From positions 23,770 through 87,769 of the IMG/VR virus record IMGVR_UViG_3300017706_001340: DNA of 64,000 nucleotides; one strand, 5' to 3'. This document shows positions 3,475-61,361 of this stretch, in pieces. Each line of letters starts with the position of its first letter. Position 1 is the first letter of the stretch. The position numbers and the translations under genes were made by a program. This DNA comes from a virus. Under the pieces are notes generated by a model. It did not search any database, was not told the DNA's origin, and worked only from the letters and a program-made list of their open reading frames with translations.

Positions 3475-3479
3475 AATAG

Positions 3480-3486
3480 TATTTAT
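3480..3486 (-). promoter_or_regulatory. T4-type late promoter
   Basis: ATAAATA 5 nt upstream of ATG 3474. Confidence 0.65.
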
Positions 3487-4115
3487 TGTGTGTTGTGTCT
3501 TTTAGCCCGAGACTTTTCTATGTCACCATATTTATTCATGTCATTACCATACAATTGCTTGTCTGTATCATCCATTCGACTCCATTGTGAAGCCACCCAT
3601 TGATCCCACTTGGCTTGATCACCAGTACCAGGTCTTCCTTGTTGTTGATTGACTGTCGTTTGTATTCCCATCTGACCTTTCTGGAAGCCTGGTTTGCTAG
3701 CTATCTGTTGTTCAGCGTGGTATCGTTGATAACCTTTGAGACCTTTCCAGTGTCTATATTTTGGGTCACTGTTTGCTTGTTGTTCCAACTCTTGATTCAC
3801 ATCTGACCACTGTGCTTGTTGAGCTGATGTCATCCGTTCCCATGAGCTCTTGATTCTCTTCTCAAGATCAATATCACCCTGATTTTTACCAACATCACCT
3901 AGATCTTGAACAACACCACCCACAGCACCAATCATGTCTCCACTCTTGGCTTTGTCCTTAAACGCCTTGCCAGCAGCAGCGAATTGATTCATACCACGCC
4001 CGATATTACCCATTATACCCTCTAGTATTTGATTGGTAGTGACTCGAGGAGCAGTTTCTTCTGGGAAATATTTTCCTTTCATCTCATGTAGTTTATTGAT
4101 GAACTTGTCAGTCAT
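3483..4115 (-). CDS. Gln/Gly-rich hypothetical protein (late)
   Basis: 210-aa ORF with two W.RM...Q motifs; TATAAATA upstream. Confidence 0.75.
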   Translation of the reverse strand: MTDKFINKLHEMKGKYFPEETAPRVTTNQILEGIMGNIGRGMNQFAAAGKAFKDKAKSGDMIGAVGGVVQDLGDVGKNQGDIDLEKRIKSSWERMTSAQQAQWSDVNQELEQQANSDPKYRHWKGLKGYQRYHAEQQIASKPGFQKGQMGIQTTVNQQQGRPGTGDQAKWDQWVASQWSRMDDTDKQLYGNDMNKYGDIEKSRAKRHNTQ

Positions 4116-33587: not shown

Positions 33588-35327
33588 ATGTCAACAAAAC
33601 AAACCACAACACCAAAAAAACCGAAAGTAGATCCAAAACATGTATACATGGGTAATCAAAACCTACCCACGAGCAAGGCTGAGTTTGAGTGGACACCTAC
33701 TATGGTCAGAGATCTTAAGAAGTGCCAGAAAAACTTACTATATTTCGCTGAAAATTTCTTTACAATCATAAATCTTGATCGCGGTAGGGAGAAGATAACA
33801 CTATTTAAATGTCAGAAGAAGGTATTACGAGCACTACGAGACAACAGATTCAACATTGTGTTAGCCTCTCGACAGGTAGGTAAAACGACAATGATGACCA
33901 TATACACTTTATGGGTAGCTTGTTTCCTCGAGGATCAACGTATACTTGTTGTAGCAAATAAAGAGCAGACAGCAATAAACATTTTCAAGCGAATCAGACT
34001 GGCGTACGAACAACTACCAAACTGGATTAAACCTGGTGTAGTTGAGTACGGTAAGACAAGCATGACATTAACCAACGGTAGTAGTATCGGAATCAGCACT
34101 ACCAGTAGTGATGCTGGTCGAGGTGATAGTTGTAATTGTTTGGTACTAGATGAGCTAGCATTTATTGACAATCATCTTGTTGAGAGTTTCTGGAAGTCAG
34201 TGTATCCGATAATATCATCTAGTAAGAAGAGTAAGATCTTCATCGCTAGTACACCAAATGGAACAGGTAACTTGTTTCACGATCTATATAGTAATGCAAT
34301 CCGAGGAAAAAATAATTGGTGTGCGAGTCGCATCGACTGGTGGGAAATTCCTGGTAGGGACGAGAAGTGGAAACAGGACACAGTACAGTCACTCGGAAGT
34401 ACAGACATTTTTGATCAGGAGTTTGGATGTCAGTTCATAGAAACTGGTGAGAGTGTGTTGGATGAGGAGTTGATACGTAAGAGCTCACTGTCCATACAAG
34501 ATCCGGAGCATCTATTCGATGATGGTAAATATAAAGTATGGTCCTTGCCTGATGAAACACGATCTTATGCAATTGGCGTGGATATATCAGAAGGTGTAGG
34601 TGAGGCTGCTAGTGTCATACAGGTAATTGACATAACAGACTTGACAGAGATTGAACAGGTAGCAGTATATCACAGCAATACTATCAGTCCGTACAACTTC
34701 ACAACAAAATTATTAGAGGTACTACAACAATGGGGGTCTCCACCCGCGTTGATAGAGAGGAACAATTGCGGTGCACAAGTTGTAGATACATTAAAGAATG
34801 TATATGGTTACGAGAATATAGTCAATTATACCCCAAGTAAAAATCAAGCAATTGAACGTCCTGGAGTAATAGCACATACAAACACCAAATATAAAGGTGT
34901 TGTCAACATGAAATATTGGTTGAGTGAAGTTTATTCGGTTGTGTTGCGAGACACTAACACATTAGAGGAGTTGAAAACATTCGTAAGATATCCTAATGGT
35001 ACATGGAAAGCGATTAAAGGTACAAATGTGCATGATGACAGAGTCATGAGTTTGATCTGGTCACTCATGATACTTGAAACATCAATAACCGAACAGTTTT
35101 TTGAGATTTTACAGGTGGATAAAAATAACAAGCCGGCAGAATTAGGTCGTTTGGACTTTGGTTATCGACAGTTCAGTGACACACTCTCACTTTATAGTAA
35201 CGAGAAACAACAAAATAAATACAGTGCACTGCCCATATATATGGATAGTGAGAACTTCGATAATACAAGCGAAGCAAACAACCCGGAGCTTGAAGAAATG
35301 CAAGAACAAGGATGGACAACAGTATGA
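33588..35327 (+). CDS. gp17: Terminase large subunit gp17
   Basis: SRQVGKTT, LVLDELAF, STPNG, FDQEFGC, GVDIS, HDDRVM. Confidence 0.97.
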   Translation: MSTKQTTTPKKPKVDPKHVYMGNQNLPTSKAEFEWTPTMVRDLKKCQKNLLYFAENFFTIINLDRGREKITLFKCQKKVLRALRDNRFNIVLASRQVGKTTMMTIYTLWVACFLEDQRILVVANKEQTAINIFKRIRLAYEQLPNWIKPGVVEYGKTSMTLTNGSSIGISTTSSDAGRGDSCNCLVLDELAFIDNHLVESFWKSVYPIISSSKKSKIFIASTPNGTGNLFHDLYSNAIRGKNNWCASRIDWWEIPGRDEKWKQDTVQSLGSTDIFDQEFGCQFIETGESVLDEELIRKSSLSIQDPEHLFDDGKYKVWSLPDETRSYAIGVDISEGVGEAASVIQVIDITDLTEIEQVAVYHSNTISPYNFTTKLLEVLQQWGSPPALIERNNCGAQVVDTLKNVYGYENIVNYTPSKNQAIERPGVIAHTNTKYKGVVNMKYWLSEVYSVVLRDTNTLEELKTFVRYPNGTWKAIKGTNVHDDRVMSLIWSLMILETSITEQFFEILQVDKNNKPAELGRLDFGYRQFSDTLSLYSNEKQQNKYSALPIYMDSENFDNTSEANNPELEEMQEQGWTTV

Positions 35328-35905
35328 ATGACACTATACAGCAATCAATTTTAAACAAAAGCAAGAAGGATAAATTTGTATTCATCCTCACACTACCTGA
35401 GGCTATGAAGGAAATCGCATACACACAATCAGAGAACCGAGATGATGATCACGTGCTACCTGATACATTACAATTCAGCGTGTATGGCGCTCTGTTACCA
35501 TCTGTGCGAGTAGATAGTGGGAACATACGATATGGCGGACAAGCTGTGAAGTTCAGTGCACATAGCCGTCCGGAATATGATAATGTTAGAGTAAACTTTA
35601 CTGTTGACAATAGATTCAACAACTACTGGGTAATATGGAAGTGGCTAAACATCATGAATGATGATGAATCCGCTGTTTTTATGTCAACACGTGACATAAC
35701 AACACAAGAATCCATATTTAAACAATATCAAGGCACAGCAACAATGTATGCACTAGATGAATATAACAAACAAGTGGCAAGATTCGACTATCAGGGGGTT
35801 GTCCCTGTTAGTTTAGGTGAGATAGACTACAATTACAGGACTACAGACGAGATTGATACCACGTTTGAGTTCTCTTTTTCGAAGCTCACTCCAACTTTGT
35901 TATGA
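35324..35905 (+). CDS. Tail completion/tube terminator gp3-like
   Basis: Tube-fold pattern VNFTVD....NYW..WKW, PVSLGEI.Y, FEF.F. Confidence 0.7.
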   Translation: MNDTIQQSILNKSKKDKFVFILTLPEAMKEIAYTQSENRDDDHVLPDTLQFSVYGALLPSVRVDSGNIRYGGQAVKFSAHSRPEYDNVRVNFTVDNRFNNYWVIWKWLNIMNDDESAVFMSTRDITTQESIFKQYQGTATMYALDEYNKQVARFDYQGVVPVSLGEIDYNYRTTDEIDTTFEFSFSKLTPTLL

Positions 35906-39089: not shown

Positions 39090-39638
39090 ATGCCAGATGT
39101 AAGACAGACAATATCAGATTTCTATAGAGTAGCACAAGAACGGGATTTCAGCCGTGATTTCCAGTTCCGTGTTCTCAATATTCAAAACGGTGACAGTAGT
39201 GTTACCATAAATGAGGACGATCTAGTGTACGCCAAGGGTGGTAGTATACCGGGCCGGACGATCAATGTATCCGAGATACCATTTATGGGACTAAACTTCA
39301 GGGTACCTGGTGGAGCCACATATACAGGTGAGTATACACTCAGCTTTTATAGTGACCGAGTCGATAGCTTGAGAACATTGTTGTTAAACTGGACTAGAGA
39401 CACATTCGATGATGCGACTAGTACCGGTAATTACTTCATTGCAAAAGAAACATCGATTGTTGACTTAGTACAACTAGACACACAGTTGAATCGAGTGAGT
39501 CAATACACACTCGTTGGTGCATTTCCTACAAGTGTTGGTGATGTATCATACGATCCATCTGGTAGTGGTGCTCCTGTTGAGTTTGAAGTCACATTAGGTT
39601 ATCAATACGTTCGTAACCAGAGCTTCCAGTCTTTGTAA
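39090..39638 (+). CDS. gp19: Tail tube protein gp19
   Basis: IPG....IPFMG....PG, VQLD, GAFPTSVG, EFEVT..YQY; follows the sheath gene. Confidence 0.9.
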   Translation: MPDVRQTISDFYRVAQERDFSRDFQFRVLNIQNGDSSVTINEDDLVYAKGGSIPGRTINVSEIPFMGLNFRVPGGATYTGEYTLSFYSDRVDSLRTLLLNWTRDTFDDATSTGNYFIAKETSIVDLVQLDTQLNRVSQYTLVGAFPTSVGDVSYDPSGSGAPVEFEVTLGYQYVRNQSFQSL

Positions 39639-39688: not shown

Positions 39689-39715
39689 GTGTTTGGGTAT
39701 TAAATATTATTGTAT

Positions 39716-40828
39716 ATGTTTGATGATATTAGAAGAGTTGGAGAAAAAGTCGATGATTTACTCGGTACAGATATATTCCCGTTTAATTATCCATTCAGTC
39801 ACACTGAAAACTTCTTACAACATATGGACAAGTGGGAGTTCGCAATACCAAACAAGTTTTTATGGTTGATTAACATAGAAGAGGCTGTACATCCCAACAG
39901 GATGACAAGTAAAAACTTCTCATCACTACACCCGATACCCAAATTTATACGCTCTTCTAACATGCACGCTTTGGAACCAGGTGATAATGGTCAACATTCA
40001 GGATCCATCAATGCACCCGGTTCACAAACAAAAGGATGGGACATAGATCAGGCTAGAGTTGAGATAACTCAGGATACATACATGAAGACCGGTGGTGGTA
40101 AGCATGGATGCTTGCTTGCTCAAGGTGTAGTCTTACCAGGTGAAAACTACGAAATACGAGATGTACCCATTCAAAACAACATGGGGTTTCTTCCTGGTAA
40201 AGTGGGAGGAAATCGTTCCGGCATGCAACCACTCGTTATACAATGGAGAGAAACTAATAGAAGCTTTACAGATATGGTGATTCGACCATGGCTTATACTC
40301 GCCTCGCACCTAGGACTTGTTGCTAGACATTCATCTGACAATAGAAACATTAAAGCTAACATCAGTATCGTGCAGCTCGCCAAAACATATCAATACACAC
40401 CACTAGTTGAAAGAAAAATCTGGAGATTTTACAATTGTGTACCAGCGAGTATAAACTCCAATGAGCTAACATATCAAGATGGTAACAATTTTGATATATA
40501 CACAACTCATTGGCACTACACACACTATACAATAGAGAGTCTACCTGACCAAAACATGAATGATTACCTAAACAAACAAGGATTCAAGAGATTTGTCATG
40601 GGTATGGCTGATAAATTGTTGAGTAAGAGTAGAGCTTACCGTAAGTTGAAGGGTAAAATAGCAAAAGTGGAAGAATTTGTGGATAAAGCAGCAAACATCA
40701 AAAAGAAAATAAACAAGGTTGTTGGTTTTCTCGGTGGCAATAAAGGACCCAGACCACAACAGGGTCCACGTGGTAGATTGTCTGGTAGAGGTGGATCCGC
40801 TCGATTTACATCTGATGATATAGAGTAA
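39716..40828 (+). CDS. Tube-fold baseplate/tail tube initiator (gp54-like)
   Basis: V.LPGE, F...IRPW, FYNCVP, W.Y; TTAAATA upstream. Confidence 0.6.
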   Translation: MFDDIRRVGEKVDDLLGTDIFPFNYPFSHTENFLQHMDKWEFAIPNKFLWLINIEEAVHPNRMTSKNFSSLHPIPKFIRSSNMHALEPGDNGQHSGSINAPGSQTKGWDIDQARVEITQDTYMKTGGGKHGCLLAQGVVLPGENYEIRDVPIQNNMGFLPGKVGGNRSGMQPLVIQWRETNRSFTDMVIRPWLILASHLGLVARHSSDNRNIKANISIVQLAKTYQYTPLVERKIWRFYNCVPASINSNELTYQDGNNFDIYTTHWHYTHYTIESLPDQNMNDYLNKQGFKRFVMGMADKLLSKSRAYRKLKGKIAKVEEFVDKAANIKKKINKVVGFLGGNKGPRPQQGPRGRLSGRGGSARFTSDDIE

Positions 40829-41741: not shown

Positions 41742-41775
41742 TTGATACAGATACCAACTTAAATAAATATAATAT

Positions 41776-42611: not shown

Positions 42612-45600
42612 ATGGAAGAAAACATAACAGAGCTCGTAACCACATTAACATCACTCGTAGAGAAGTTAGACGACAAGTCAACGAAGCAGGGAGTTAGTGA
42701 TGCACGTAACTCATATAATCCTGATGATGCGTTTGACAGTGAAGAGAAGCATTTAAAAGATCAACAAAAACAACAAGCGAAGTTAAATGCCGAGGAATCT
42801 GAAAAACTCGACAAAAAGAGGAAGAATCCAAGAAAAATTTTACAGACCGTGATGCCTATCAAGGTGATGGAGTTTGATAAGAGAGCAATCAAGCAATTGC
42901 AGTCAATCATGATCTCACCTGTACAGATAGAGGAAGAGCAAGATAAGAAGCCCAATAAATCCAGCTGGTGGCCGGCATTATTGGCGGGTGTAGTGGTTGT
43001 GTGGGACAAGCTCAAAGATGCTTGGCTTGTAATACGTACAACAGTTGGTGATTGGGCAACTGCCATGAGTAAATGGTGGAAAAAATTCAAGAAAACTATG
43101 AACATCAGATGGTCACGCTTAAAAGGATGGTTTAATAAGTTTAAGGTGGGTGATTTGATACCACAATCGATCAAAAAATGGTGGATACAATTCCGCAAGG
43201 GTGTGTCCACGAAGTGGTTGGGAGTTAAGAGCTGGTTTAATAAATTTAAAGTCAGTAGTCTAATTCCGGAATCGGTCAAAAAGTGGTGGAAGAACATGAA
43301 CAAATCGATGGTGAAGAGATGGTCCGGTATCAAGACATGGTTCACAAATTTCAGTCCCAAGAAATTGATACCTCAATCGATACGTGGTTGGTGGAGCAAG
43401 CTGAACTTCAGCAAGAAGTGGACCGGTATCAAGACATGGTTCACAAATTTCAGTCCCAAAAAATTGATACCAAGTGGAATACGCAATTGGTGGAAAGGTT
43501 TCGATATGGGTAAAAAATGGCTCAGCTTTAAAACATTTTTTGTTGATCTCCCAGGGAAAGTTAAAGCATTGATACCACAGTCTATAAGGACAGCATTGAG
43601 CACTGTAGTTAAGACGATGAAAGCAGCTTTGCTCCCAATTACAGCATTCTTCACCGGTCTAAGTGGACTGTTTGGTGGTGGTAAGGGAGCAAATAGTACG
43701 AGCATATTCACTAAAATCGCGAAGTTTTTCGGTCCCACTAATCCTGTAATCAAAGGTATCTTCACATTCTTAAAAACTGCCGGATCGGTACTAGGTAAGC
43801 TGTTTTTACCAATAACTATAATAATGGAAGCTTTTAACTTTGTGACTGGCTTCATGGAGGGTTTCAAGAAGGATGGTATAATAGGAGGAATAAGAGAAGG
43901 TGTAAAGTCGGTATTCAACAGTCTGGTCGCATTTCCATTAGATCTACTCAAGAGTGGTGTTTCATGGATAGCAGGTAAATTAGGATTTAAGGAAGTTGAG
44001 AAAACGTTAGATGAATTCTCATTCAAAGAGTTGTTCACTGACTTGTTCGACAAGTTGTTTGGTGTGATTGATATGTCTATTGGCTTTATAAAGAATCTAA
44101 TAAACGATGGAGCTGAGAGAGTGAAAGATATGTTTAGGTCTGAAGAAGAGATCAAAGCCAGAAAGGCTGCCGGTGCTCGAGCCAAAAATAAAGAAGCAGC
44201 CATGAAAGAAACTTTCCAGCGATCTGTAAGTTCAGATGGCATGAACAAGATATTAGCAGCCAAAAAGACGAGTGATGAGAATGAGGCTGAGATAATAGAG
44301 TCACAAACAGCTCGATGGAGAGATGCTATGGCTTCCGCAGCTAGACAGACCAAAGATGAGAAAGAATTCCGGGAATTGGTTATAAAACAACTTGAAAATG
44401 ACAAGAAGGGTAGTTCCAGGACGTTTCTCGCCATGCAACAAAAAGCGGTGGGTAGTGATTGGGAGAAAAATGCTCTTAAGAACTTTAAGAAGGTCCGAGG
44501 TCAGAATGTTGTTGATACGAATGCCATGGGTGATTTGGCACAAACATTGGCAAATCAGCGTGCACAAACACGCAGATTCAATGATACTGTCAAGGTGGTT
44601 ACTGATGATTGGAAAAAATCTGGTAGTTTAAAACTCGGTGACATGAAGATTGATCTCACGGCTCTTAAGAATGATAAGAGTAAAATTGATCCTAAGATTG
44701 TTGAACATTACGAGTCCCTGATCCGCATGCGGGATGAAACGAATAACAATGAGCTCAAGATACAGTATGGCGCGATGATCAAGAGTCTTGACAATGTAGG
44801 TGTGAAAGAGGCTGTGGATCACATCAAAGCACAACAAGCAGAGACGGAAAAATTTAAAGCGGATCTAGAGGATTACGATCGCGCAATTAAACAGGGAGGT
44901 CCCCAACGTATATTGCAGACTCCAGAGAAACTCGACCTGATTTCAACTAATTACGAGATGCCCCAAGAAGAGAGGTTGAAGGAATGGAAATTAACAGCTG
45001 GTCCTCAACCGACAAAACCTACCAGATCATTAGAAGAAACCAAAGCGTATCTCAACGCCATATCAAGTGTGAATGTTGATCAATTAAAGGTGAATGAACA
45101 AGTCAAGGCCGCCGAAGCAGCCGCTATCAAGCAGACTAAACTTGTATCACCAGTTGTACCACAACCATCAAAGCAGACATCAATAGATCCCGGGAGATTA
45201 TCTGAATTAGAGCTCACGTTGGAACAACCGTTACCAGAACTAAATACAAAGCAAGCATCTGATCATATCAAACAATCCGGCGACAAGATAAATCAAGGAG
45301 CACAGTCCTTGCATTTCGAAACATTAGAAGGATGGCCCAGACCTCAAAGTCCATACGCGTGGGATTATGTCAAGATGGCCGGTGAGTCTATAACAAGAGG
45401 TAGTAAACAATTACACGAACAGGCGATCCAATATGAAAAGGCAGCAAGTAACACCAACAAATCCGCACAGAAAAACAATCAGAATATCGAGAAGAAGATG
45501 AGTGAGATGGTTAATATAATGACGGAGACTGTTGGTATACAGAAGAAGACACTCAACGCACTAGAACAACATGGATTGATCGACAAACAAGGTAATACAA

Positions 45601-45704
45601 CTGTAAACAGTGGCGGAAACAACACTACAGTTAACAACGTCACGGTCGATTCAGACATAATGAAATTTAGAGACAAGGTTGTAGGGAGACTATACAACAA
45701 GTGA
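42612..45704 (+). CDS. Tape measure-like protein
   Basis: 1030 aa, helical, Trp/Phe-periodic repeats, hydrophobic LGKLFLPITII segment, NNTTVNN tail; follows chaperones. Confidence 0.75.
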   Translation: MEENITELVTTLTSLVEKLDDKSTKQGVSDARNSYNPDDAFDSEEKHLKDQQKQQAKLNAEESEKLDKKRKNPRKILQTVMPIKVMEFDKRAIKQLQSIMISPVQIEEEQDKKPNKSSWWPALLAGVVVVWDKLKDAWLVIRTTVGDWATAMSKWWKKFKKTMNIRWSRLKGWFNKFKVGDLIPQSIKKWWIQFRKGVSTKWLGVKSWFNKFKVSSLIPESVKKWWKNMNKSMVKRWSGIKTWFTNFSPKKLIPQSIRGWWSKLNFSKKWTGIKTWFTNFSPKKLIPSGIRNWWKGFDMGKKWLSFKTFFVDLPGKVKALIPQSIRTALSTVVKTMKAALLPITAFFTGLSGLFGGGKGANSTSIFTKIAKFFGPTNPVIKGIFTFLKTAGSVLGKLFLPITIIMEAFNFVTGFMEGFKKDGIIGGIREGVKSVFNSLVAFPLDLLKSGVSWIAGKLGFKEVEKTLDEFSFKELFTDLFDKLFGVIDMSIGFIKNLINDGAERVKDMFRSEEEIKARKAAGARAKNKEAAMKETFQRSVSSDGMNKILAAKKTSDENEAEIIESQTARWRDAMASAARQTKDEKEFRELVIKQLENDKKGSSRTFLAMQQKAVGSDWEKNALKNFKKVRGQNVVDTNAMGDLAQTLANQRAQTRRFNDTVKVVTDDWKKSGSLKLGDMKIDLTALKNDKSKIDPKIVEHYESLIRMRDETNNNELKIQYGAMIKSLDNVGVKEAVDHIKAQQAETEKFKADLEDYDRAIKQGGPQRILQTPEKLDLISTNYEMPQEERLKEWKLTAGPQPTKPTRSLEETKAYLNAISSVNVDQLKVNEQVKAAEAAAIKQTKLVSPVVPQPSKQTSIDPGRLSELELTLEQPLPELNTKQASDHIKQSGDKINQGAQSLHFETLEGWPRPQSPYAWDYVKMAGESITRGSKQLHEQAIQYEKAASNTNKSAQKNNQNIEKKMSEMVNIMTETVGIQKKTLNALEQHGLIDKQGNTTVNSGGNNTTVNNVTVDSDIMKFRDKVVGRLYNK
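43324..43471 (+). repeat. 49-bp direct repeat (1 mismatch) with 99-bp period in the Trp-rich repeat region
   Basis: 43324-43372 vs 43423-43471, encoding GIKTWFTNFSPKKLIP twice. Confidence 0.9.
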
Positions 45705-45715
45705 TAAATATTGAC

Positions 45716-46150
45716 ATGCTTACTAACGATACAACAGTAACATTGATGAATGGTAATGACCGGGTATCAACAAAACTTCCAGAGATATTAGAGATGATAT
45801 GCACTGATGATGAGCTGATAATCGAATCATATGAATCAAAAATAACTACAGCGACGATCTCCAGTATACGTACATCAGATAGTAAGGATTTCCTGTACTT
45901 AAAAACGTGTTGTGATAATACGTTAATGTTGACACCAGATCATAAAATATATCTACCAGAAACCAAAGAATGGATTCGAGCTGAAAACATGAGTAAAGGG
46001 TTGTGCGTGTTGATGTCTGATGGATCTACATCAGAGATACTATCGACACACATAGTAGCAGATAATACAGCCAGTAGAGTGTATTCTCTTGCTATAACAC
46101 CAACACAATGTTATTTTGCAAACAACATACTAGTACATAACGAGAGTTAA
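45716..46150 (+). CDS. Stand-alone Hint (intein-like) domain protein
   Basis: Block A-like MLTNDTTVTLMNG, block B LTPDH, WIRAENM, blocks F/G VYSL...YFANNILVHN; ATAAATA at 45704-45710. Confidence 0.85.
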   Translation: MLTNDTTVTLMNGNDRVSTKLPEILEMICTDDELIIESYESKITTATISSIRTSDSKDFLYLKTCCDNTLMLTPDHKIYLPETKEWIRAENMSKGLCVLMSDGSTSEILSTHIVADNTASRVYSLAITPTQCYFANNILVHNES

Positions 46151-46152
46151 TT

Positions 46153-47439
46153 ATGGATATAACGAACAGAAAATTTAAGGAGAATACCAACACTGGGCAG
46201 ATCGAAGAGTACGATGATTTGCAAATCGCAAAGGCAACTGAAACCACCAGTTTCTATTGGTCGATGTCATATCCCAGAAGAGCCACAATACAACCTCCAA
46301 AACCTAAAAAGGGTGAAAAGATAGCCGCCACCGGCGCATGGTTGAAGAGTGTGGGAGGATACGGGCCCGCACCTACATTGTTACCAATAAATCAGAAGGG
46401 TGAACCTAATGAAGTTAATAAAAACACACCGAAGCCATCAGTACCTGTGAATGTTAGAGACAGTCATCACTGGACCGAGTCGCCTATCTCGTCTCGTCGA
46501 GAGGTACCCATGTTGAACATAAAGGAAAATAAGATTTTAACAAACACATCATTGAATCAGATGCTCAACATGGGAATGGCAGCTGCGACATCAGCTGGAT
46601 CTGCAGTTGAGAATGTAGAAAAGGTGATGAAAATGGTGAAGGAGGGTAGTTATGATGAAGCGCTAAAAAATTTGGGAGTGAATTCTGATAATGTTTCTCA
46701 GCTAGCTGCAGAAACAACATATTATGACCCCATGAATCCGTACAACATGCTATACAGCACAATACCGACAGGTTTTAAGTATGTGTTCCCATACATGCAA
46801 GACAGCTATATAAACAATAACAGTAATTTTGGCAGTGTAGATTCAGGCTCTGTAGTCATGGATGCACTTAAGGATTACGCAGAAGGTGCCAATGAAGTGT
46901 TTGCCATGGCAAATCTCTCAAAACAATTAGCTCCTGGTAGGATGATAGAGACACCCAAGGGGTTCACATTTGATGGTCGTGAAAAATCATACACCGTTAC
47001 ATTTCCACTATTCAACACAAAATCATATAGCGAGATCGTTAGAAACTGGCAATTCATCTATTTACTGTCATATCAGAACACTCCAAACAGAGTATCACGT
47101 GATTTGATTGATCCTCCATGTATTTACGAAGCGTACATACCCGGTGTGTGGTACAGTAAGTATTCAGCACTCACCAACATGACTGTGGATTTCATAGGAG
47201 CTCGCAGAGAGATGTATATACCTGTAAAAATAATAGATCACGCAGACAGTGGTAAGAATCGAGCAACCGCGGAAGGTAATTGGGTTGAATCACAGAAAAA
47301 AACACTCGCAGTGATACCGGATGCATATAATATCACACTAACATTCACGGAGTTGTTTTCTGAGACACAGAACTTTAAATATCAGATGTTGAGGGAGTCG
47401 ATGAATGATATTATAACTACAGGAACAAAGGTTAATTGA
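46153..47439 (+). CDS. Baseplate tail-tube cap gp48-like
   Basis: F....KSYTVTFPL, PP...E..IPG, ALTNMTVDF, ITLTFTE. Confidence 0.7.
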   Translation: MDITNRKFKENTNTGQIEEYDDLQIAKATETTSFYWSMSYPRRATIQPPKPKKGEKIAATGAWLKSVGGYGPAPTLLPINQKGEPNEVNKNTPKPSVPVNVRDSHHWTESPISSRREVPMLNIKENKILTNTSLNQMLNMGMAAATSAGSAVENVEKVMKMVKEGSYDEALKNLGVNSDNVSQLAAETTYYDPMNPYNMLYSTIPTGFKYVFPYMQDSYINNNSNFGSVDSGSVVMDALKDYAEGANEVFAMANLSKQLAPGRMIETPKGFTFDGREKSYTVTFPLFNTKSYSEIVRNWQFIYLLSYQNTPNRVSRDLIDPPCIYEAYIPGVWYSKYSALTNMTVDFIGARREMYIPVKIIDHADSGKNRATAEGNWVESQKKTLAVIPDAYNITLTFTELFSETQNFKYQMLRESMNDIITTGTKVN

Positions 47440-47822
47440 TGAGCAGCGAAGCTATAAAATATAATAAGTATGAAGTTGAGATGTTGCTCAAATTGTCAAA
47501 GAGTCAGGAATTCAAGTTGGAGAGAATATTTGATGTGTATAAACAACGCGAATCAAAGCATTTTTATTACAACATCTTCAACACCATCAACTTCCCGGAC
47601 AATATGAACACAAGTATTTTTGATGTTTATTACACAAAAGCGGAAGAACCATGGACATTGATATCATATAAGCATTTTGGAAGGATTGATTTGTGGTGGT
47701 TGATCGCATGCTTGAATAAAGTGAAGAATACATTTATATTACCACAAGCCGGAACTAGACTGTTAATACCTACTGGAGAGACGATCAGAACAATTATAGA
47801 TGAAATAAAAGCTAAGATATGA
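47436..47822 (+). CDS. gp53: Baseplate wedge gp53-like (LysM-like)
   Basis: Y....E.W..ISYKHFG...LWWLIA.LN. Confidence 0.82.
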   Translation: MMSSEAIKYNKYEVEMLLKLSKSQEFKLERIFDVYKQRESKHFYYNIFNTINFPDNMNTSIFDVYYTKAEEPWTLISYKHFGRIDLWWLIACLNKVKNTFILPQAGTRLLIPTGETIRTIIDEIKAKI

Positions 47823-53537: not shown

Positions 53538-53578
53538 CGTAATTATTTATCAATCCTCCGCTCATTTCCAGCCTCCAT

Positions 53579-53593: not shown

Positions 53594-54085
53594 ATGTCTA
53601 TAAACATTAACAGAGTAGGAGCACCAACTCCAGTGGATTCTGTATCCAAAAATCAGTACAGAGATCTGTACTTGGATCTTGCTGAAAACACAAAACCTTC
53701 GAATAACGCTTCATACGGCAAAACAACTCAGACTGACATACATGCATCTATTGATGAAGGTTGTATCATGAACAGTTTAACAAATCTGTTCAACACAGTA
53801 CCAGGACAAAAAATATTGAATCCCGAGTTCGGTATAAATCTTATGCAATGGTTGTTCGAACCTGTTAATGAGTTCACAGCGCGTGAGATAGGTGAGGCGA
53901 TACAATTCGGTATAACAAAATTTGAACCCAGGATACAACTCACGCATGTATCAGTAATTTCAGATCAAGAAAAAAATCAGTACATAATCAAGCTAGCTAT
54001 ACAGATTCCTAGCTTAAATATAAGTACAACCCATGATGCAGCCTTGAATCAATTTGGATTTGAATTTTTAACAGAAAATGAGTAA
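53594..54085 (+). CDS. gp25: Baseplate wedge gp25
   Basis: YRDL, NSL.NLF.T.PG...NPEFG...LFEP, FEPRI. Confidence 0.92.
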   Translation: MSININRVGAPTPVDSVSKNQYRDLYLDLAENTKPSNNASYGKTTQTDIHASIDEGCIMNSLTNLFNTVPGQKILNPEFGINLMQWLFEPVNEFTAREIGEAIQFGITKFEPRIQLTHVSVISDQEKNQYIIKLAIQIPSLNISTTHDAALNQFGFEFLTENE

Positions 54086-55886
54086 GAACTTAACAGAATA
54101 CAACTTACCGGAAACGGCATACACAACATTTGATGCAGAGAGTCTCAAATCTTTGATTATCGAGCGATTGACCGAACAAGGTACATTCACGGATCAGATA
54201 TACGAGGGTAGTAACTTGTCGTCATTTATCGATGTAATCGCTTACAGTTATCATGTGTTGCTCTTTTATTTGAATCAAACTGCTAGTGAAAGTGTGTTTA
54301 CAGAGTCAACAATATATGAGAATGTAAACAGGATAGTGAAAGTCTTGAATTATAGCCCTCTAGGTTATCAGACATGCTCATTATCATTCGAGACAACAGC
54401 AACTGAAGACCTTGTTCCAGGTACGTATACAATACCAAGATACACATTCATAAACAACAACGGGATAGCCTACTCATTGAACAAGGATATATCGTTCACA
54501 AAGTATACCACTGGTGAGGAAAAAATTGATGTTATCGGTGACAATTATTTATTGTATCAAGGCAAGTGGATCGAGAGTGTTCCGGTGGAATCTACTGGTG
54601 CTGATTTCGAGACAATTGCACTGGCAGTTAACGGTGAAGATAAGAAAATAGATCACTTTAATGTCAATGTGTATGTGATGAGTAAAAATGATGGTAAGTA
54701 TTATGAGTATAGTGAGACAACATCACTATATCTGCATAAATCTACTGATCATGTGTTCGAGAAGAGGTTGAGTGAGGATATGTCATATGAGATAAAGTTT
54801 GGTAACAACATAAACGGCCGAAGGCTGGAACCTGGCGATAGTATACAGGTATACTACCTTGAATCGATTGGTGATGAGGGTAGAGTTGGTTCTAATTTCC
54901 TAGATGATAGCAAGTTTGTATTGATGGGTACAACGAAATACAATGACATAATGAAGGACACCCGTGCTGAAAACATTAATTATATAACACTGGATAGTAT
55001 AGAGATGTTGCAGTTGACAAACAATTCTCCCAGTACATTCGCACAAGAACGGGAATCCATTGAAGATATAAAACGTAAAGCTCCTATACACTATATTAGC
55101 CAAGATAGACTCGTGACATTAACCGACTTCAAGACACACATCTCAAAGAATTTTGATGCATTACTCTCATCATCCGATGTTGTGGATAACAACACATATC
55201 TAGATGGTCATTTCAAATATTTAGCTGAAGAGTTAGGGTTGAACAATCCTTTGACTGAGAGTAGGGTGATGCAGAGTCACCTGGATTATGCCTCCACTAG
55301 TACAGGAAACAACATCTACATATACGGTGTACCTAAAATAACACAAAATACATCACTCCTACCAATGACGACCTTTCTCAATCCAGCTCAAAAGACCTTA
55401 ATTACAAATGAAGTGAGTCGATTGATGATGGTGTCACACCAACCCATAATGATGGATCCAGTGTATGTTGCAGTGAGTATATCGACTCGAACCGCCTCAG
55501 AGCCTGAAGTGATAGATCATATTGAGAACACAACACTCGAGGTCAAGCGTGCTAGTGCTGTATCACGTGATGATTCAGCGATAGTGAATCAGATTATACA
55601 AGTGATGACAGACTATTTTGCTAATGGTCAAGTGACGCTCGGTCACTTGATCGATCTACCAGAATTAAGTCAGCAATTACTGAGTATACCTGGTGTTGAT
55701 GAGATAACAACAGTTCGTACGGACACTGGTCAGAGAACACCAGGTATTAGTTTATGTGTATGGAACCCGGTATATTCTGAGATGGATGTCAATATAACCA
55801 ATCAGAGTATTAAACTACCATATTTTAAATATCCATATTTGAATGATGCATTCGGATTGAAGGACAAAATAACAATAGTCAAATAG
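54078..55886 (+). CDS. gp6: Baseplate wedge gp6
   Basis: FTD..YEGSNLS..ID..AY, IKFG....G, ESIE.IK..AP, QDRLVT..DF. Confidence 0.92.
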   Translation: MSKNLTEYNLPETAYTTFDAESLKSLIIERLTEQGTFTDQIYEGSNLSSFIDVIAYSYHVLLFYLNQTASESVFTESTIYENVNRIVKVLNYSPLGYQTCSLSFETTATEDLVPGTYTIPRYTFINNNGIAYSLNKDISFTKYTTGEEKIDVIGDNYLLYQGKWIESVPVESTGADFETIALAVNGEDKKIDHFNVNVYVMSKNDGKYYEYSETTSLYLHKSTDHVFEKRLSEDMSYEIKFGNNINGRRLEPGDSIQVYYLESIGDEGRVGSNFLDDSKFVLMGTTKYNDIMKDTRAENINYITLDSIEMLQLTNNSPSTFAQERESIEDIKRKAPIHYISQDRLVTLTDFKTHISKNFDALLSSSDVVDNNTYLDGHFKYLAEELGLNNPLTESRVMQSHLDYASTSTGNNIYIYGVPKITQNTSLLPMTTFLNPAQKTLITNEVSRLMMVSHQPIMMDPVYVAVSISTRTASEPEVIDHIENTTLEVKRASAVSRDDSAIVNQIIQVMTDYFANGQVTLGHLIDLPELSQQLLSIPGVDEITTVRTDTGQRTPGISLCVWNPVYSEMDVNITNQSIKLPYFKYPYLNDAFGLKDKITIVK

Positions 55887-55889
55887 CAC

Positions 55890-58800
55890 ATGGCAACATA
55901 CTCACAGTTAGTTGGATCAAGCTACACGGATGTTGTAGTACCGATCACATCAGATAATGGATTAGGTACCATAGATACATGCAAAACAACACTAACCGGA
56001 TACACACTACCCCAAACACAATTCACATTCACAGCAGAGTTATCCTCGCTAGATAACACTTATATCGGTGCTAGTATGGATAAATTGATCTGGGATCTCG
56101 GGGACGGTACATACAGCACCGGTGTGAGTGTGACAAAACACTACCCATACCCAGGTGAATTTCAAATCACAACAATTTTTACAGATCAAAACGGAGTGAC
56201 ACATCGCAACAGATTGTCACAAACAATCCGAGTGTTGAATTATATACCAGACAGTCTAGTGTGGTACACACCCACTATTGCTGATCCATTTGGTGGTAGA
56301 CCAGAACGAGCTGTGTGTGGTGCACCTAGTGAAGATTTATCAATATACAGAATGAACAGCTGGCAGAGCTGGCCGATGGTTAGCGGTGATGGTGGGTATT
56401 ATATCAATCTATATTCCACTGGTAGTAAGAGTCGACCACTATCCACCAGGCAGTATGAATCAAACCCGGATACACATTTCATTCCTAGTTGGAGATTCGT
56501 GGAGAATAAAGAGAGTAAGTTGCCGGTTGAGCGTGTGCAAACTGATAATGAGTTTGTATACGTCAAGGTGGTGGACAGCGAACTTGTGCGGGTCCCTAGT
56601 GATGATATAGATGCAATTTTCGCCGGGACCTCCGGCATGATGACAGTCAATTATATTGACGATAACCCGAACAGATTGACAAGTGCAAGAAGTGTGGAGG
56701 CATCAAAGAATAACGCTGGTGCTACACAATCTAACACCAATGTAACTACAGAAGAAGCGGAGATGATGAATTTAGGATTGGAGGATAGAGACATAATATT
56801 ATACGCATCATTTGATACATCCAAATTCCCGGTTTCCAATGGTGACAGAGACATTGATAAGTTTGAGTTGATGAAGAGTAACTATTTTCAGGTATATGAA
56901 ACTCAAAAGGTTGGTTTACCTATACAGATAAAATTTAATAGTCCGAGAGAGTTGTCGTTAACCACCACCGGAATACATGAAGATGGCTTTCAGATATCTG
57001 GTAACAAATTTGTAAACTCACCGCTGCCGCTTGTGGTGAGCACGATGGATTTATCAAGCAACACACTCAACACCGAGGAATTGGCACCACTATCTTCACG
57101 ATGGACTGCCGAGAGTCAGCACTTCTCTGGTGGCGACATAACCACCGATGTGCTCACTGCGCAGGGGTTCGTAACATTGTACCTATCCGGTAATGACAGT
57201 AGCTTCACACAACTCAAATCTGTGTATCGAACAGATGATGATTTCAAGGTGTGGGATATAGGTCAGATCCTTCCGGAGCAAGTAGAGAACAAACAATTGA
57301 GAATACTCCTGGCCGACAGGCGTGACAATACATTACTAACCACACCATTTGAGGATAACACACGGAACCGAATAGTATCATTATTGTACAGTGAGATACA
57401 TCCTGATCAGCAAGAGGAGCTAATCTATACAAATATATCGGACCACAGTTACCCGGGTGGCAAGCCTCGTGAGTGGCAAACTCGTGCCGGTTTGAAGTAT
57501 TACGGATTTGTTTTACCGACGTCAAACTTCACAGAATCAGGATACGTTGATATGGAACTCAAAGACGCAACAGAGAAGTTCGATCACACCGGCAGTTGGC
57601 TCACATATGTTAATTTTAATGTCGAGGAGAGTAGTTTTGACTTTGATAAAACAAAATATAGATTTTACGCACATACACTGATCGATCCACCAGAAACTTT
57701 TACATACGATGTGGCATATTACTATATAACCAACCCTACTAATGATAGACTCTGGCAGATAAAGCCTGTGTATCATCGGGAGTATAGTTATGGTGATGAT
57801 GGGTTCACTCAGACATACACACCACCCATATCAACACAAACTCCAGGTAACAGCGGCATGTATGGTTTGGCGGTTGATACACTTGGTGATGTGATTGCTG
57901 TTGATGGTGACACGGACAAGGTCATCAGATACTGGCGCAACAGAACCAGCAGATCAGAACATGCGCTATCTGATATTTTACCGGAAGATGTAACATGTAA
58001 TCATTGGCCTAAAGATCCAGATGCATATGGATACACTCCTAGTAGTGTGTCATTGGATAAAAAATTAGATTATTGGGTCACTTTGTATGACGCTGTGTCA
58101 ACAGTAAAATTTTCCGGTGAGACCAATCTACCCATTGCTTATGCTGTACCATCCACCCCCAATTATCTAGCAGATGTCCGCACAACATCTCCATCCTCAC
58201 ACTGGACAATAGATCCTGAATATCAAATGAATATTGTGGGTGGACGACCCGGGGAGTACGGTGAGAATATAATCAATCCATCGATGGTAGAGACTTGTGT
58301 CAATAATGATATTGTCGTGACATATACAAACCCTCTGTGTAGCTTCATAGCCAGATACGACTCAACCGGACAGTTGAAGAACAAATATGAATTTCCTGGT
58401 GAGGATCGATATTTCTCCGGAGATGTATGTGTTGATGTTAGTGATCATGTGTGGGCGATAACTGAGAGTACCGGGTTGACTTTTGATGGTCAACCAGATG
58501 ATCAGGTGGCAAGCATGCTATATGCATTTGATGAGGAACTGACACTCAGATTTGTTGTCAGTTCACTCGAGGGTACAGATTATCAGGACATGCTCAAACC
58601 GGCTCCACCAAAACGTGAAGAGATTGATATCATTATAAACATGGAACAAGAGTATAATTATGATACTCAAGAGTACTATGAAACTGCAATTCTAGTTGAT
58701 GGTTATGGTGACAGTGTAAATCCACAATTGACATTATATGAGGGTAATGTATATCATTTTGAAAATCAGTATTACAACAGAGGCAAACACAATTTAAAAT

Positions 58801-61361
58801 TTCAATATATAATACCAGAAAATTCAACATTACCAGCTAGTGCAGTTCCATTCGAGTATGCAAAATCTGGAGATGTAATCACACAGGATGTATCTGGTAA
58901 CGATTCTTCTAGAGTCTCAATTGAGATCACTGATGAGACACCTAAGAGGTTTTTGTATGTTGATAGAAATTACCCTAACACCATCGCGCTAGTTGTAAAC
59001 GTGATACCTAAACCCAAGATTGACAGCCGGCAAGCAGATACATTCAAATATATGAACAACGCTAGCTTCATCACACCTGATGTTAAAAACAACATTTGGA
59101 TATCATGGGGGAAGAGATTCTGCTCGAGATACAACACTATGAAGAACGAGATAGACATGACTGTTGCTGTTGGCTCAGCATATGATGACCCAAGATATCA
59201 TCCACTGTCTGCTGAAACTCATGACCGAAGAGACAACGCCGGGAGGAGATCGGTGGTTGAAGGTTTAGCGATGGACACCGCGAACAATCTACTGATCATA
59301 AACAACAACGAAAAAGTGTTATATTCACTAAACTCCGATCAACCTACGTTGAGTTCATTTATAAAGATAGAGGATTATCAGATACCATATGAAGAGTTTA
59401 ACTGGGTGGAGAGCATCTCTAGTGATGATGAGGCCACAAGAGATGATTTTATGTTGTATCCTGAGAGTCATATGACTAAGGAACAGATCAAGGTGTTTTT
59501 AAACAACGTCAATTTCTCCGGGACGGAAGAAGAGAAAATGCAAGCGTTCATCAACTATAATAACACGATGACGATATCCGGAGGAGATAGTAAATTCCGC
59601 ACTGCCCATGGAGCTAACCCTGTATCTGCTACTGGATTTGAGTCTGAAATTTGCGCGTTTGGAGACTGGACTGGTTTCCGGTGGATCAACAAATATGATG
59701 ATAGAGCAGTGGCAAGTGATGAGACCACAGGGTTTGTAAGTGTCACTGGATCATCAAATGAATTTGATTTGATTAAATCCACAGGCACAAATGAAATAGT
59801 TAAGGTTAATGAAGATATTGATTTCGCGGGTGTGTTGAGATCATATATGAAGCAACCAAGTCTGGTGAATAGCCCTAAGTTGTATGAAGAGTTATTAACA
59901 GCAGTTTTCGGTACAAACACGTCATCAGTCAACTCTTTAGGTAAGCGAGTATATGAAAGAATTTCAAATTATATCGAAAACACAGTTGATATAGACACAT
60001 GCACTATAACAGCACTACACGGCCTGGCGGAGATGGTCAATTATAACCTAACCGGTGTTGGTTACACCTTCCCGGCAGACATGCAAAGATTATTAGACAT
60101 ACTGTCAATAAGTTACACACGACTGAGAGGAACAGCTGTAACTGAAGAACTAGATTTTGAGAAGTATGGCAATTGGACGCAACAGACTGCGGGTGTGAAT
60201 TTAGGTCATGAACTGTTGTTTGTATTTGATTATAGAGCAGACCATGGCTATTCAACTGGTGATTATGTTAAGTATGGTAAAAATTATTATGAGTGTGTAG
60301 AGAGCATATCAAATGTAACACCCAGCAAACTGTCTGAATACTGGATACATCACCCACGTGGTGAGATTAGAGCTATAACCCCATCGCGTGGTAGAATAGT
60401 ATATAATAAGATGTCTGAAGATCAACAACTAGAATATGATGGTTTTGAGGACTTTTATCAGCAAGAGGTCAACTTACGAATACAATTGATACAAAATCTA
60501 GATCTGGCGGTGGATAAAAAGGTAGTGTTACATAACGAGACTACAGGTGAATTTAATCTCGTACAAGGTCGGACGATCCGCTTGGAAGATGGCCGGACAT
60601 ACAAGATGACGCTGCATGATTCTAATCATATCAAAATAACGACACCTAATCTGTCTCGACCACTACACCCCGAGCATGTCGCGACAGTTGATGATTATGA
60701 ACCACTGTATACTGAAACAGATGATGGTGTTATCACTGTTATAGGTCAAGATAATCACAACATGACAATAGTTTTGTTCAGGAACCGGAATTATAGATTT
60801 GAAGTTGAGAGTTTAGACCACCCTATCATAATAACAGAATCACCCGGACCTAGCGCTGTACCGACAACATATGTAAATGATCAATTTGTAGAACTAGGTA
60901 AAATAAACATAAGCACCATGGATGACCCGGTACATGGTTTGCTTCCAACAAAACTATATTATCAAAGCACAAAGGATCACACCATATCTGGAACTATCAT
61001 AATAAAAGATGTAGATGCCACTATTGGTTACTCAACACTGTATGATGGATTGACATCATATTCATTGAACCTGTCGGTTAGTGGCCATCGAGAATTGGAT
61101 CAACTTGGATGGGGTATGGATTTTCCTGCTAATGGAAGTGCATGGCAGTATTATAGTCTGTTTGAATATGTTGAACCAACTGTAGATCAAGTAAAATATA
61201 TAAACAATGTTATAGACTGGGACAGCAATCAAACAACAGTCAAGCAAGACACACCATTTGCGTCTTGGTATGAAGAGGGTGGTATCGCACAAACTATGAT
61301 AGAAAAAACATTGAGAGAAGGTTTAGGTATGATGGATGGTATGGACTCAATAAGTAAATGA
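55890..61361 (+). CDS. Large multidomain baseplate protein (gp7/P2 gpI-like) with PKD, propeller-like and CBM-like modules
   Basis: PKD WDLGDG...HYPYPG.F; DIDTC...L..LAEMV motif; YSTGDYVKY....Y.C...P...YW; follows gp6. Confidence 0.65.
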   Translation: MATYSQLVGSSYTDVVVPITSDNGLGTIDTCKTTLTGYTLPQTQFTFTAELSSLDNTYIGASMDKLIWDLGDGTYSTGVSVTKHYPYPGEFQITTIFTDQNGVTHRNRLSQTIRVLNYIPDSLVWYTPTIADPFGGRPERAVCGAPSEDLSIYRMNSWQSWPMVSGDGGYYINLYSTGSKSRPLSTRQYESNPDTHFIPSWRFVENKESKLPVERVQTDNEFVYVKVVDSELVRVPSDDIDAIFAGTSGMMTVNYIDDNPNRLTSARSVEASKNNAGATQSNTNVTTEEAEMMNLGLEDRDIILYASFDTSKFPVSNGDRDIDKFELMKSNYFQVYETQKVGLPIQIKFNSPRELSLTTTGIHEDGFQISGNKFVNSPLPLVVSTMDLSSNTLNTEELAPLSSRWTAESQHFSGGDITTDVLTAQGFVTLYLSGNDSSFTQLKSVYRTDDDFKVWDIGQILPEQVENKQLRILLADRRDNTLLTTPFEDNTRNRIVSLLYSEIHPDQQEELIYTNISDHSYPGGKPREWQTRAGLKYYGFVLPTSNFTESGYVDMELKDATEKFDHTGSWLTYVNFNVEESSFDFDKTKYRFYAHTLIDPPETFTYDVAYYYITNPTNDRLWQIKPVYHREYSYGDDGFTQTYTPPISTQTPGNSGMYGLAVDTLGDVIAVDGDTDKVIRYWRNRTSRSEHALSDILPEDVTCNHWPKDPDAYGYTPSSVSLDKKLDYWVTLYDAVSTVKFSGETNLPIAYAVPSTPNYLADVRTTSPSSHWTIDPEYQMNIVGGRPGEYGENIINPSMVETCVNNDIVVTYTNPLCSFIARYDSTGQLKNKYEFPGEDRYFSGDVCVDVSDHVWAITESTGLTFDGQPDDQVASMLYAFDEELTLRFVVSSLEGTDYQDMLKPAPPKREEIDIIINMEQEYNYDTQEYYETAILVDGYGDSVNPQLTLYEGNVYHFENQYYNRGKHNLKFQYIIPENSTLPASAVPFEYAKSGDVITQDVSGNDSSRVSIEITDETPKRFLYVDRNYPNTIALVVNVIPKPKIDSRQADTFKYMNNASFITPDVKNNIWISWGKRFCSRYNTMKNEIDMTVAVGSAYDDPRYHPLSAETHDRRDNAGRRSVVEGLAMDTANNLLIINNNEKVLYSLNSDQPTLSSFIKIEDYQIPYEEFNWVESISSDDEATRDDFMLYPESHMTKEQIKVFLNNVNFSGTEEEKMQAFINYNNTMTISGGDSKFRTAHGANPVSATGFESEICAFGDWTGFRWINKYDDRAVASDETTGFVSVTGSSNEFDLIKSTGTNEIVKVNEDIDFAGVLRSYMKQPSLVNSPKLYEELLTAVFGTNTSSVNSLGKRVYERISNYIENTVDIDTCTITALHGLAEMVNYNLTGVGYTFPADMQRLLDILSISYTRLRGTAVTEELDFEKYGNWTQQTAGVNLGHELLFVFDYRADHGYSTGDYVKYGKNYYECVESISNVTPSKLSEYWIHHPRGEIRAITPSRGRIVYNKMSEDQQLEYDGFEDFYQQEVNLRIQLIQNLDLAVDKKVVLHNETTGEFNLVQGRTIRLEDGRTYKMTLHDSNHIKITTPNLSRPLHPEHVATVDDYEPLYTETDDGVITVIGQDNHNMTIVLFRNRNYRFEVESLDHPIIITESPGPSAVPTTYVNDQFVELGKINISTMDDPVHGLLPTKLYYQSTKDHTISGTIIIKDVDATIGYSTLYDGLTSYSLNLSVSGHRELDQLGWGMDFPANGSAWQYYSLFEYVEPTVDQVKYINNVIDWDSNQTTVKQDTPFASWYEEGGIAQTMIEKTLREGLGMMDGMDSISK

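Follow-up and report, generated by a model that had tools for sequence, protein, structure and literature searches.

Hint domains are known as inteins, bacterial-intein-like (BIL) domains, Hedgehog-type processing domains and pretoxin-release modules, and in each of these, to our knowledge, it is a covalently joined part of a larger protein whose targets are the sequences beside it. In a stretch of 64,000 nucleotides (nt) of viral DNA, called here the window (positions 23,770 to 87,769 of the IMG/VR record IMGVR_UViG_3300017706_001340), one gene of a phage tail module encodes a protein of 144 amino acids (aa) that resembles a Hint domain without exteins. This locus raises the question of what such a bare Hint protein is, and what it might do, between a putative tape measure gene and a gp48-like gene.

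An extein-less Hint fold and its catalytic positions

On its structural model, the 144-aa protein is one complete mini-Hint fold that belongs to the Hint superfamily, as the initial annotation of this DNA had claimed for the whole gene. Pfam family PF14890 (Intein_splicing) matched it with 30.6 bits (expectation value, E, 3.4e-7), under the 35.8-bit gathering cut-off, and with 15.5 bits in the genome scan; a PT-HINT match was also obtained (E 3.5e-4). Several homologues carry precomputed PF14890 or PF07591 matches, and the profile of the family matches solved mini-inteins with an E of 2e-6. The AlphaFold model, computed with a 28-sequence alignment, reached a predicted local distance difference test score (pLDDT) of 94.6 and a predicted template-modelling score (pTM) of 0.88. 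In a Foldseek comparison with the Protein Data Bank (PDB), the best match was the BIL2 domain of Tetrahymena (6y75; template-modelling score, TM, 0.85; E 2.6e-10), followed by the NrdJ-1 (TM 0.84), RadA, DnaB and RecA inteins and by Hedgehog; among the 69 PDB matches with E<=1e-3, those listed all have the Hint fold (inteins, BIL domains, Hedgehog). The 144 residues align end to end with mini-inteins of about 140-150 aa with no endonuclease insert, and the mini-Hint fold accounts for all of them, in agreement with the earlier claim that no homing endonuclease is present. The gene and its diagnostic residues are listed below, with residue counts taken from a survey of 36 family sequences, 29 of them stand-alone and seven fused to the gp48-like protein.

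45716..46150, + strand: stand-alone Hint gene, 144 aa; ATG at 45716, stop TAA at 46148-46150; 5 aa longer if started at the in-frame GTG 45701
45716..45733, + strand: equivalent of block A, M-L-T-N-D-T, with Met1 at the Cys1 position; family consensus M[LIV]xxxT, aligned with C-VTGDT of intein P0045
45869..45871, + strand: Arg52 in the family-specific motif (S/N)TR-S-(D/S)SKDF; Arg in 35/36 members, Lys in one
45932..45943, + strand: block B, T73-P-D-H76 (TxxH); Thr73 in 36/36, His76 in 20/36, Gln in all seven fused forms
46085..46087, + strand: Ser124 at block F position 4, where class 1 inteins have Asp and class 3 inteins have Cys; from a hidden Markov model (HMM) alignment to the NrdJ-1 intein
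46136..46150, + strand: end of block G, H141-N142, then E143-S144 and TAA; His-Asn in 25/36 members

Regarding the boundaries of the open reading frame (ORF), its length is 149 aa when counted from GTG 45701 and 144 aa from ATG 45716. The latter is the likely start, since the relatives become conserved precisely from the Met of MLT(N/K)DT, the five preceding codons being variable (VINID, VINTT or unrelated). The span first assigned to the gene, 45704-46150, was correct for the stop and not for the start: the upstream TGA ends on position 45704, and an ATAAATA box begins on the same base. Hint is read in the -1 frame with respect to the tape measure, with a GTGA overlap, and the next gene starts 2 nt past the Hint stop. 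Direct reading of the frames revealed that the Hint frame is closed upstream by TAG 45668-45670, with no slippery heptamer in the remaining 34 nt, and that the gp48-like frame contains TAA 46138-46140, where a shift would yield HN-RELIM... with no nucleophile. As both frames are closed and no slippery site is found, recoding is unsupported, and frameshift or readthrough fusions, whether to the tape measure or to the gp48-like protein, were ruled out. The Hint product, as judged from its reading frames, is a separate protein.

The initiator Met stands at the Cys1 position, where the initial annotation had placed it: it aligns with Cys1 of the bona fide intein P0045 (...C-VTGDTKVTL...NNILVHN-C). 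The TxxH of block B and the terminal His-Asn are intact and only Glu-Ser-stop follows, the +1 residue being Glu143 and not Cys, Ser or Thr. Ser124 aligns with the block F Asp of NrdJ-1, at the position where class 3 inteins have Cys, and Gln131 aligns with the block F position 13 His of NrdJ-1. Across the family, block F position 4 is S, T, A, N or M and never D or C, and the position 13 His is missing from all members except P0025 and P0222. Having no N-extein, Met at position 1, Glu at +1 and Ser at block F position 4, the Hint protein cannot, on these residues, splice, in cis as first proposed or otherwise.

The same features place it outside the established intein classes. It has the TxxH of class 1 inteins and lacks both their position-1 Cys/Ser/Thr and their His-Asn with a +1 nucleophile, and it has no class 3 Cys at block F position 4. 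It is not an in-frame insertion with ligated exteins, since the ORF runs from block A to two residues past block G, and the same extein-less layout is seen in about 28 relatives. Nor does it resemble a homing-endonuclease intein or an HO-like protein, with no inserted endonuclease domain, or a split-intein fragment, the Hint fold being complete and not a half.

Conservation, selection and genomic position of the family

A first profile scan of IMG/VR returned mostly ordinary inteins (HN-C in large ORFs), along with a few proteins that have Hint at their C-terminus; the true relatives were found with a family-specific degenerate DNA pattern. In the IMG/VR loci L018-L021 (ORFs of about 624 aa) and L034 (610 aa), a Hint domain stands at the very C-terminus after an N-terminal part of about 490 aa, and these ORFs end in HN-KMP-stop, HN-KEP-stop or HN-K-stop, a C-terminal arrangement of the Hedgehog or BIL kind that lacks a C-extein.

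Seven close homologues of the window's protein are all exactly 144 aa long, and a profile search added about 25 further clusters at 50% identity, of 138-150 aa, that start with M[LIV]xxxT at the Cys1 position. A Met start is present in 36/36 family members, aligned at position 1 in 33 of them, and all copies, at identities of 21-81%, are intact and agree in length and start position. The His-Asn end is replaced elsewhere in the family by RN-D, SN-N, KSN, ILIS, VSC, IKC, VRG, IMP or TRT. Across these sequences, the classical catalytic residues are dispensable. The Arg52 motif lies, in our reading, outside the usual intein blocks. For the diverged members P0029 and P0015, the IMG/VR scans for genomic context gave short matches only, or none.

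The rates of non-synonymous (dN) and synonymous (dS) substitution were computed against an 81%-identical relative, L135. The Hint gene showed a dN of 0.100 and a dS of 0.94 (dN/dS 0.106), the C-terminus of the tape measure 0.041 and 1.29 (dN/dS 0.03), and the N-terminus of the gp48-like protein 0.065 and 1.04 (dN/dS 0.06). By this ratio, the Hint gene is under purifying selection and is not decaying. Marine population variants were found in the gene at window positions 46004 (T>C, C97R), 46040 (C>T, synonymous, Leu109) and 46055 (G>A, V114I), and both C97R and V114I fall at positions that vary among homologues. The contigs of four marine runs, which cannot prove absence, contained these three base substitutions only, with no insertion, deletion or gene-removing joint.

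In every locus with context (the window, L048/L054, L049/L055, L057, L058-L060, L134 and L135, representing three diverged sub-families), the Hint gene lies between a tape-measure-like and a gp48-like gene. The synteny and conservation check that had been recommended for this gene thus revealed a fixed position in three sub-families, together with the residue frequencies listed above. The copy of L057 retains Met1, reads Thr-Gly-Lys-Gln in block B and ends in ...ILTRT; despite the loss of both the block B His and the His-Asn, it is intact and occupies the same genomic place. In this most degenerate copy, the Hint ORF (1902-2339) and the open gp48-like frame (2303-3595) overlap, a tight coupling that outlasts the loss of catalytic residues.

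The distribution of the gene is narrower than that of its neighbour. Among 80 IMG/VR loci with a gp48-like homologue, the Hint gene is found in six, the six closest ones (gp48-like identity of at least 49%). In L056, whose gp48-like protein is 51% identical, no Hint gene is present and the junction consists of the tape measure, TGATAAGTAATATCG, then the ATG of the gp48-like gene. Because L056 joins these two genes directly and only 6/80 loci carry the Hint gene, the latter is an accessory insertion at the junction. Two outcomes had been named beforehand as fatal to a functional interpretation. Regarding the first, absence or decay in relatives, the gene is indeed absent from 74/80 loci, and where present it does not decay (dN/dS 0.11). 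The second, a recent remnant of an ordinary intein, does not describe a diverged stand-alone family under purifying selection.

The junction itself carries a sequence motif shared with other genes of the window:

45704..45710, + strand: ATAAATA box (T4 late-promoter-like), 5 nt before the ATG of Hint, its first base shared with the tape measure stop; conserved in four relatives

In the window, 14/38 ATAAATA sites lie 5-11 nt upstream of ORF starts, compared to 1-6 for seven permuted 7-mers; examples are found at 41763, 42595, 45704 and 53580 on the + strand and at 53550, 51203, 32651, 17914, 4127 and 3486 on the - strand. The initial annotation had given the Hint gene a late promoter of its own. 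The position of the box and its enrichment bear this out as regards a putative promoter, on sequence grounds, and the word "own" does not hold: since the equivalent box precedes the gp48-like gene in a Hint-less relative, it is better seen as the promoter/junction of a Hint and gp48-like unit. Should the ATAAATA boxes be late promoters of the T4 type, this phage would make many of its late mRNAs with no leader or almost none. At the other end of the gene, a Shine-Dalgarno-like GAGAG that would serve the next gene is contained in the last Hint codons, GAG AGT; the ATG of that gene is found 2 nt past the stop. In 4/4 relatives, the Glu143 codon likewise overlaps a Shine-Dalgarno-like GAG/GAAGG of the gp48-like gene, with the ATG 1-2 nt past the stop. 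The conserved Glu143 tail is explained without chemistry by this overlap.

The gp48-like neighbour, its Hint fusions and the tail module

The genes that flank the Hint gene, and the next one downstream, are the following:

42612..45704, + strand: putative tape measure/tail-length determinator, 1030 aa, at the T4 gp29 position by synteny, after two phrog_150 hub genes and before the gp48-like gene
46153..47439, + strand: gp48-like baseplate/tail-tube initiator, 428 aa, from a structural match; fusion partner of Hint in relatives
47436..47822, + strand: gp25-like baseplate wedge subunit, 128 aa (phrog_7145, E 5e-7)

A tie between the Hint protein and one of these neighbours comes from relatives in which the two are one polypeptide. 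In seven 90%-identity clusters (P0019, P0025, P0193, P0198, P0207, P0208 and P0222), a Hint domain forms the N-terminus of a gp48-like protein. These fused proteins are 565-627 aa long and occur on up to seven contigs per cluster, the longest of 105 kb, and their gp48-like part is 48-49% identical to the window's 428-aa protein. They also start with Met at the Cys1 position. Their block B His is replaced by Gln in 7/7 clusters, and His-Asn stands at the junction in 7/7, reading HN-MSDEEW... in four, HN-TSVQ... in one and HN-A... in two; the Met that follows His-Asn looks like the old start codon of the gp48-like gene. In a tree, the fused forms make up one clade nested among the stand-alone forms, which suggests that the fusion probably arose by a single event and has diversified since.

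The 428-aa protein gave no Pfam, PHROGs or PDB sequence match (the latter searched with the single sequence and with a profile), and hhalign gave a weak alignment with gp48 (E 0.11). Its model has a pLDDT of only 66, and Foldseek returned weak matches only (best E 4e-3). When compared by VIA-align, this model matched chain 5iv5_BE of T4 with a Z of 9.9 (root-mean-square deviation 3.4, 152 residues aligned), and residues 32..358 of that chain suit the 364-aa gp48 and not the 320-aa gp54. Here again, matches to KP1 baseplate chains (Z 9.0-9.1) have residue ranges that suit the 350-aa tail tube cap, the gp48 homologue, and other tube initiators scored lower. Over its tube-like core, the modelled protein is of the gp48 structural type. 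Regarding the putative tape measure, its length differs among relatives (1030, 1089 and 1323 aa) and over its C-terminal 160 aa the identity in G001/G002 is 55%; as the family search gave no match, it was assigned by synteny and variable length. The earlier placement of the Hint gene between tape measure and gp48-like genes therefore agrees with a structural match on one side, and with synteny and variable length only on the other.

The surrounding module is of the T4 type. Its gene order is large terminase, a tube-like gene, sheath, tube, a 372-aa tube-like gene and two phrog_150 "baseplate hub" genes, followed by the 1030-aa gene, the 144-aa Hint ORF, the 428-aa gene, the gp25-like gene and genes of 552 and 417 aa, an order that parallels the T4 order 51-27-28-29-48-54. 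T4-type replication genes and a gp6-like wedge gene are found nearby in the window. The module shares with the T4 gp29-gp48-gp54 module the hub genes, the long tape-measure-like gene and the gp48-like protein that follows, with its Z 9.9 model match. By contrast, 8 nt and no gene separate 29 and 48 in T4, at the place where the window has the Hint gene, and no sequence-level similarity of the 428-aa protein to T4 gp48 was found.

It should be noted that the window has three tail-tube-like genes (phrog_45; 35312-35905, 39090-39638 and 39710-40828), one before the sheath gene, one after it and then the 372-aa version, which may correspond to the gp54-type initiator. The gp6-like wedge gene (54078-55886) is followed by an ORF of 1823 aa (55890-61361), which presumably encodes a large protein of the baseplate or of a fibre.

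The source contig is an 87.8-kb IMG/VR viral contig with an estimated completeness of 41%, which implies a large phage. The same DNA is found at >=99% identity in marine metagenomes of several studies, and the phage is an uncultured, marine, T4-like one. Among cultured phages (50,697 phage records), the DNA of the region, the Hint protein and the 428-aa gp48-like protein were all without match.

Possible roles and relation to known Hint systems

The reading that we favour, with slightly better than even confidence, is that of a domesticated non-splicing Hint that binds the gp48-like protein and works with it as an assembly factor, a cap or a small structural add-on. The domestication already suggested in the initial annotation is borne out by the dN/dS of 0.11, the diverged stand-alone clusters, the fixed place in three sub-families and the fused sub-lineage. 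From fold, selection, position and fusion we infer both the physical association with the gp48-like protein and the role in assembly. In such a scheme, an intein or BIL element would have given rise to a domesticated mini-Hint, made late from the junction that drives the gp48-like gene in Hint-less relatives. This protein would bind the gp48-like baseplate/tail-tube initiator with no protein splicing, and would most likely serve the initiator as an accessory factor in its assembly or as a cap, or be a small decoration at the baseplate-tube junction. The TxxH and the His-Asn end of the window's sub-family would then be inherited features and not requirements of the family. A catalytic action in trans on tail proteins, which had also been suggested, is unsupported because the catalytic His and the His-Asn are often lost across the family while the genomic position is kept, as in L057.

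Three points weigh against this reading. In the window's sub-family, TxxH, Cys132 and His-Asn-Glu do not vary, which could mean that residual chemistry matters. The gene is missing from 74/80 related loci, including L056, which indicates that tail assembly in this phage group generally needs no Hint. Finally, the fusion counts as one piece of evidence for association, since it is probably a single event represented by one clade.

If chemistry does matter, the protein could be a C-terminal autocleaving Hint in which Asn cyclisation at His-Asn is still active, an alternative that we consider unlikely, although it has some appeal for the fused forms. In the fused relatives, the Hint domain would be an N-terminal pro-domain whose removal releases the mature gp48-like protein; in the window's split form, cleavage would trim only Glu-Ser, leaving a C-terminal succinimide, or be vestigial. 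Such an activity would account for the retention of the junction His-Asn in 7/7 fused clusters compared to 18/29 stand-alone members, for the loss in all fused forms of a block B His that is needed for the N-terminal reaction only, and for the invariance of His-Asn in the window's sub-family; type A BIL domains, which have no +1 nucleophile, do cut at their C-terminal His-Asn (PMC4031507). However, the difference between 7/7 and 18/29 is not significant (hypergeometric estimate of about 0.1), the fused forms being a single clade. Moreover, no member has the block F position 4 Asp and only P0025 and P0222 have the position 13 His, the sole leaving group in the window's gene would be a dipeptide, and the conservation of Glu143 is explained by the ribosome-binding site of the next gene.

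We give a similarly low probability to a two-format maturation device for the tail-tube initiator, in which the fused Hint, devoid of N-terminal chemistry, would hold the gp48-like protein inactive and then remove itself through Asn cyclisation at HN-X, as a natural equivalent of engineered C-cleaving intein tags, and the split Hint would hold it in trans as a chaperone or cap.

It is no less doubtful that the gene is a tail-unrelated accessory late gene, or "moron", lodged at a permissive junction, where its product might interfere with Hint/intein proteins of the host or of competitors, or serve in superinfection exclusion or counter-defence. T4-type accessory genes often sit at intergenic junctions, and the patchy distribution (6/80 related loci, with absence from the close relative L056) and the insertion exactly at such a junction are what would be expected of one. 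Small stand-alone Hint-fold proteins also exist in unrelated phages (143-172-aa BFVD entries and viral Hint-only clusters of the ESM Atlas). A moron is nevertheless difficult to reconcile with a position fixed in three diverged sub-families, with a gp48-like start that lies 2 nt past the Hint stop or overlaps the Hint ORF, and with a gp48-like fusion that has been maintained and diversified. In addition, no other Hint or intein that could be its partner was found in the 87.8-kb contig, which is only 41% complete.

Still less probable is a functionless, slowly decaying remnant of an intein or BIL element that has lost its host context. The family-wide erosion of catalytic residues and the absence of the gene from most relatives would fit, but this explanation is largely refuted by the selection signal (dN/dS 0.11 at a dS of 0.94), and it also runs against 36/36 intact copies of the same length and start at 21-81% identity, the conservation of Arg52 and Thr73, the confident AlphaFold model and the lack of indels or joints in the contigs of four marine runs. 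Finally, that no separate protein exists, a -1 frameshift to the tape measure or a recoding to the gp48-like gene restoring an extein context, is hardly credible: the -1 frame with its GTGA overlap and the next gene 2 nt past the stop would allow it, but both frames are closed at TAG 45668-45670 and TAA 46138-46140, the 34 nt hold no slippery heptamer, HN-RELIM... has no nucleophile, and conservation begins exactly at Met1 in all sub-families.

By structure and by nearest sequence neighbours, type A BIL domains and mini-inteins come closest to the Hint protein. It shares with type A BIL domains the mini-Hint fold, a C-terminal His-Asn without a +1 nucleophile (here HN-E; Amitai 2003 and Dassa 2004, as reviewed in PMC4031507) and a location outside the conserved site of an essential enzyme. 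BIL domains, however, have an N-terminal Cys/Ser and flanks on both sides, whereas Met1, no N-flank and a two-residue C-flank are found here, and the Hint family does not require His-Asn. The nearest sequence matches outside the family are tandem BIL-like arrays with HN-K/R/S junctions. In the metagenomic sequences P0020, P0036, P0037, P0043 and P0046, tandem Hint arrays are joined by HN-K/R/S/G...C, and P0046 starts with a Met-Hint (MLTGDT...) followed directly by a Cys-Hint; in P0033, a Hint is followed directly by a ubiquitin-like sequence (BUBL type).

Class 3 inteins, which use a Cys nucleophile at block F position 4 (PMC4031507, PMC7664689), likewise have no position-1 nucleophile; the Hint family differs by Ser/Thr/Ala/Asn/Met at that position and by the lack of exteins and of a +1 nucleophile. 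With class 1 mini-inteins (NrdJ-1, Ssp/Npu DnaB, Mtu RecA; TM 0.77-0.84), the protein shares blocks A, B, F and G (MLxxDT, TxxH, VYxLxV...FANNILVHN), and it differs from them by having no exteins, by the changes Cys1 to Met, block F Asp to Ser and His to Gln, and by Glu at +1. Ordinary inteins of viral contigs that have the FANNILVHN end lie inside ORFs of 370-1660 aa and are followed by Cys. The yeast HO endonuclease is also a free-standing intein-derived gene with no exteins and no splicing, which keeps a LAGLIDADG endonuclease and a zinc-finger domain; the phage protein, by contrast, is a bare Hint fold with no nuclease. Engineered C-cleaving intein tags (Cys1Ala mini-inteins) are artificial and proven to cleave. 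The fused relatives share their layout, an N-terminal Hint without a position-1 nucleophile and with His-Asn directly before the cargo, but these natural fusions lack two supporting block F residues, and cleavage there is hypothetical.

No published account of a phage tail module with a stand-alone Hint gene was found; reports on phiCbK, CBB and staphylophages describe ordinary inteins only. Taken together, these results describe a diverged, selected family in which a bare Hint fold is a gene product of its own, with the initiator Met in the place of the nucleophile, and which is linked to a defined structural protein of the phage by its genomic position and by a gene fusion. Cleavage of the fused forms, if it occurs, would make them a natural N-terminal self-removing pro-domain, and if the two-format device exists, the Hint fold would have acquired a new biological use in the timing of phage tail assembly. 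If the Hint protein binds the tube initiator, this would be a clear co-option of an intein-type fold for a non-catalytic role in virion assembly.

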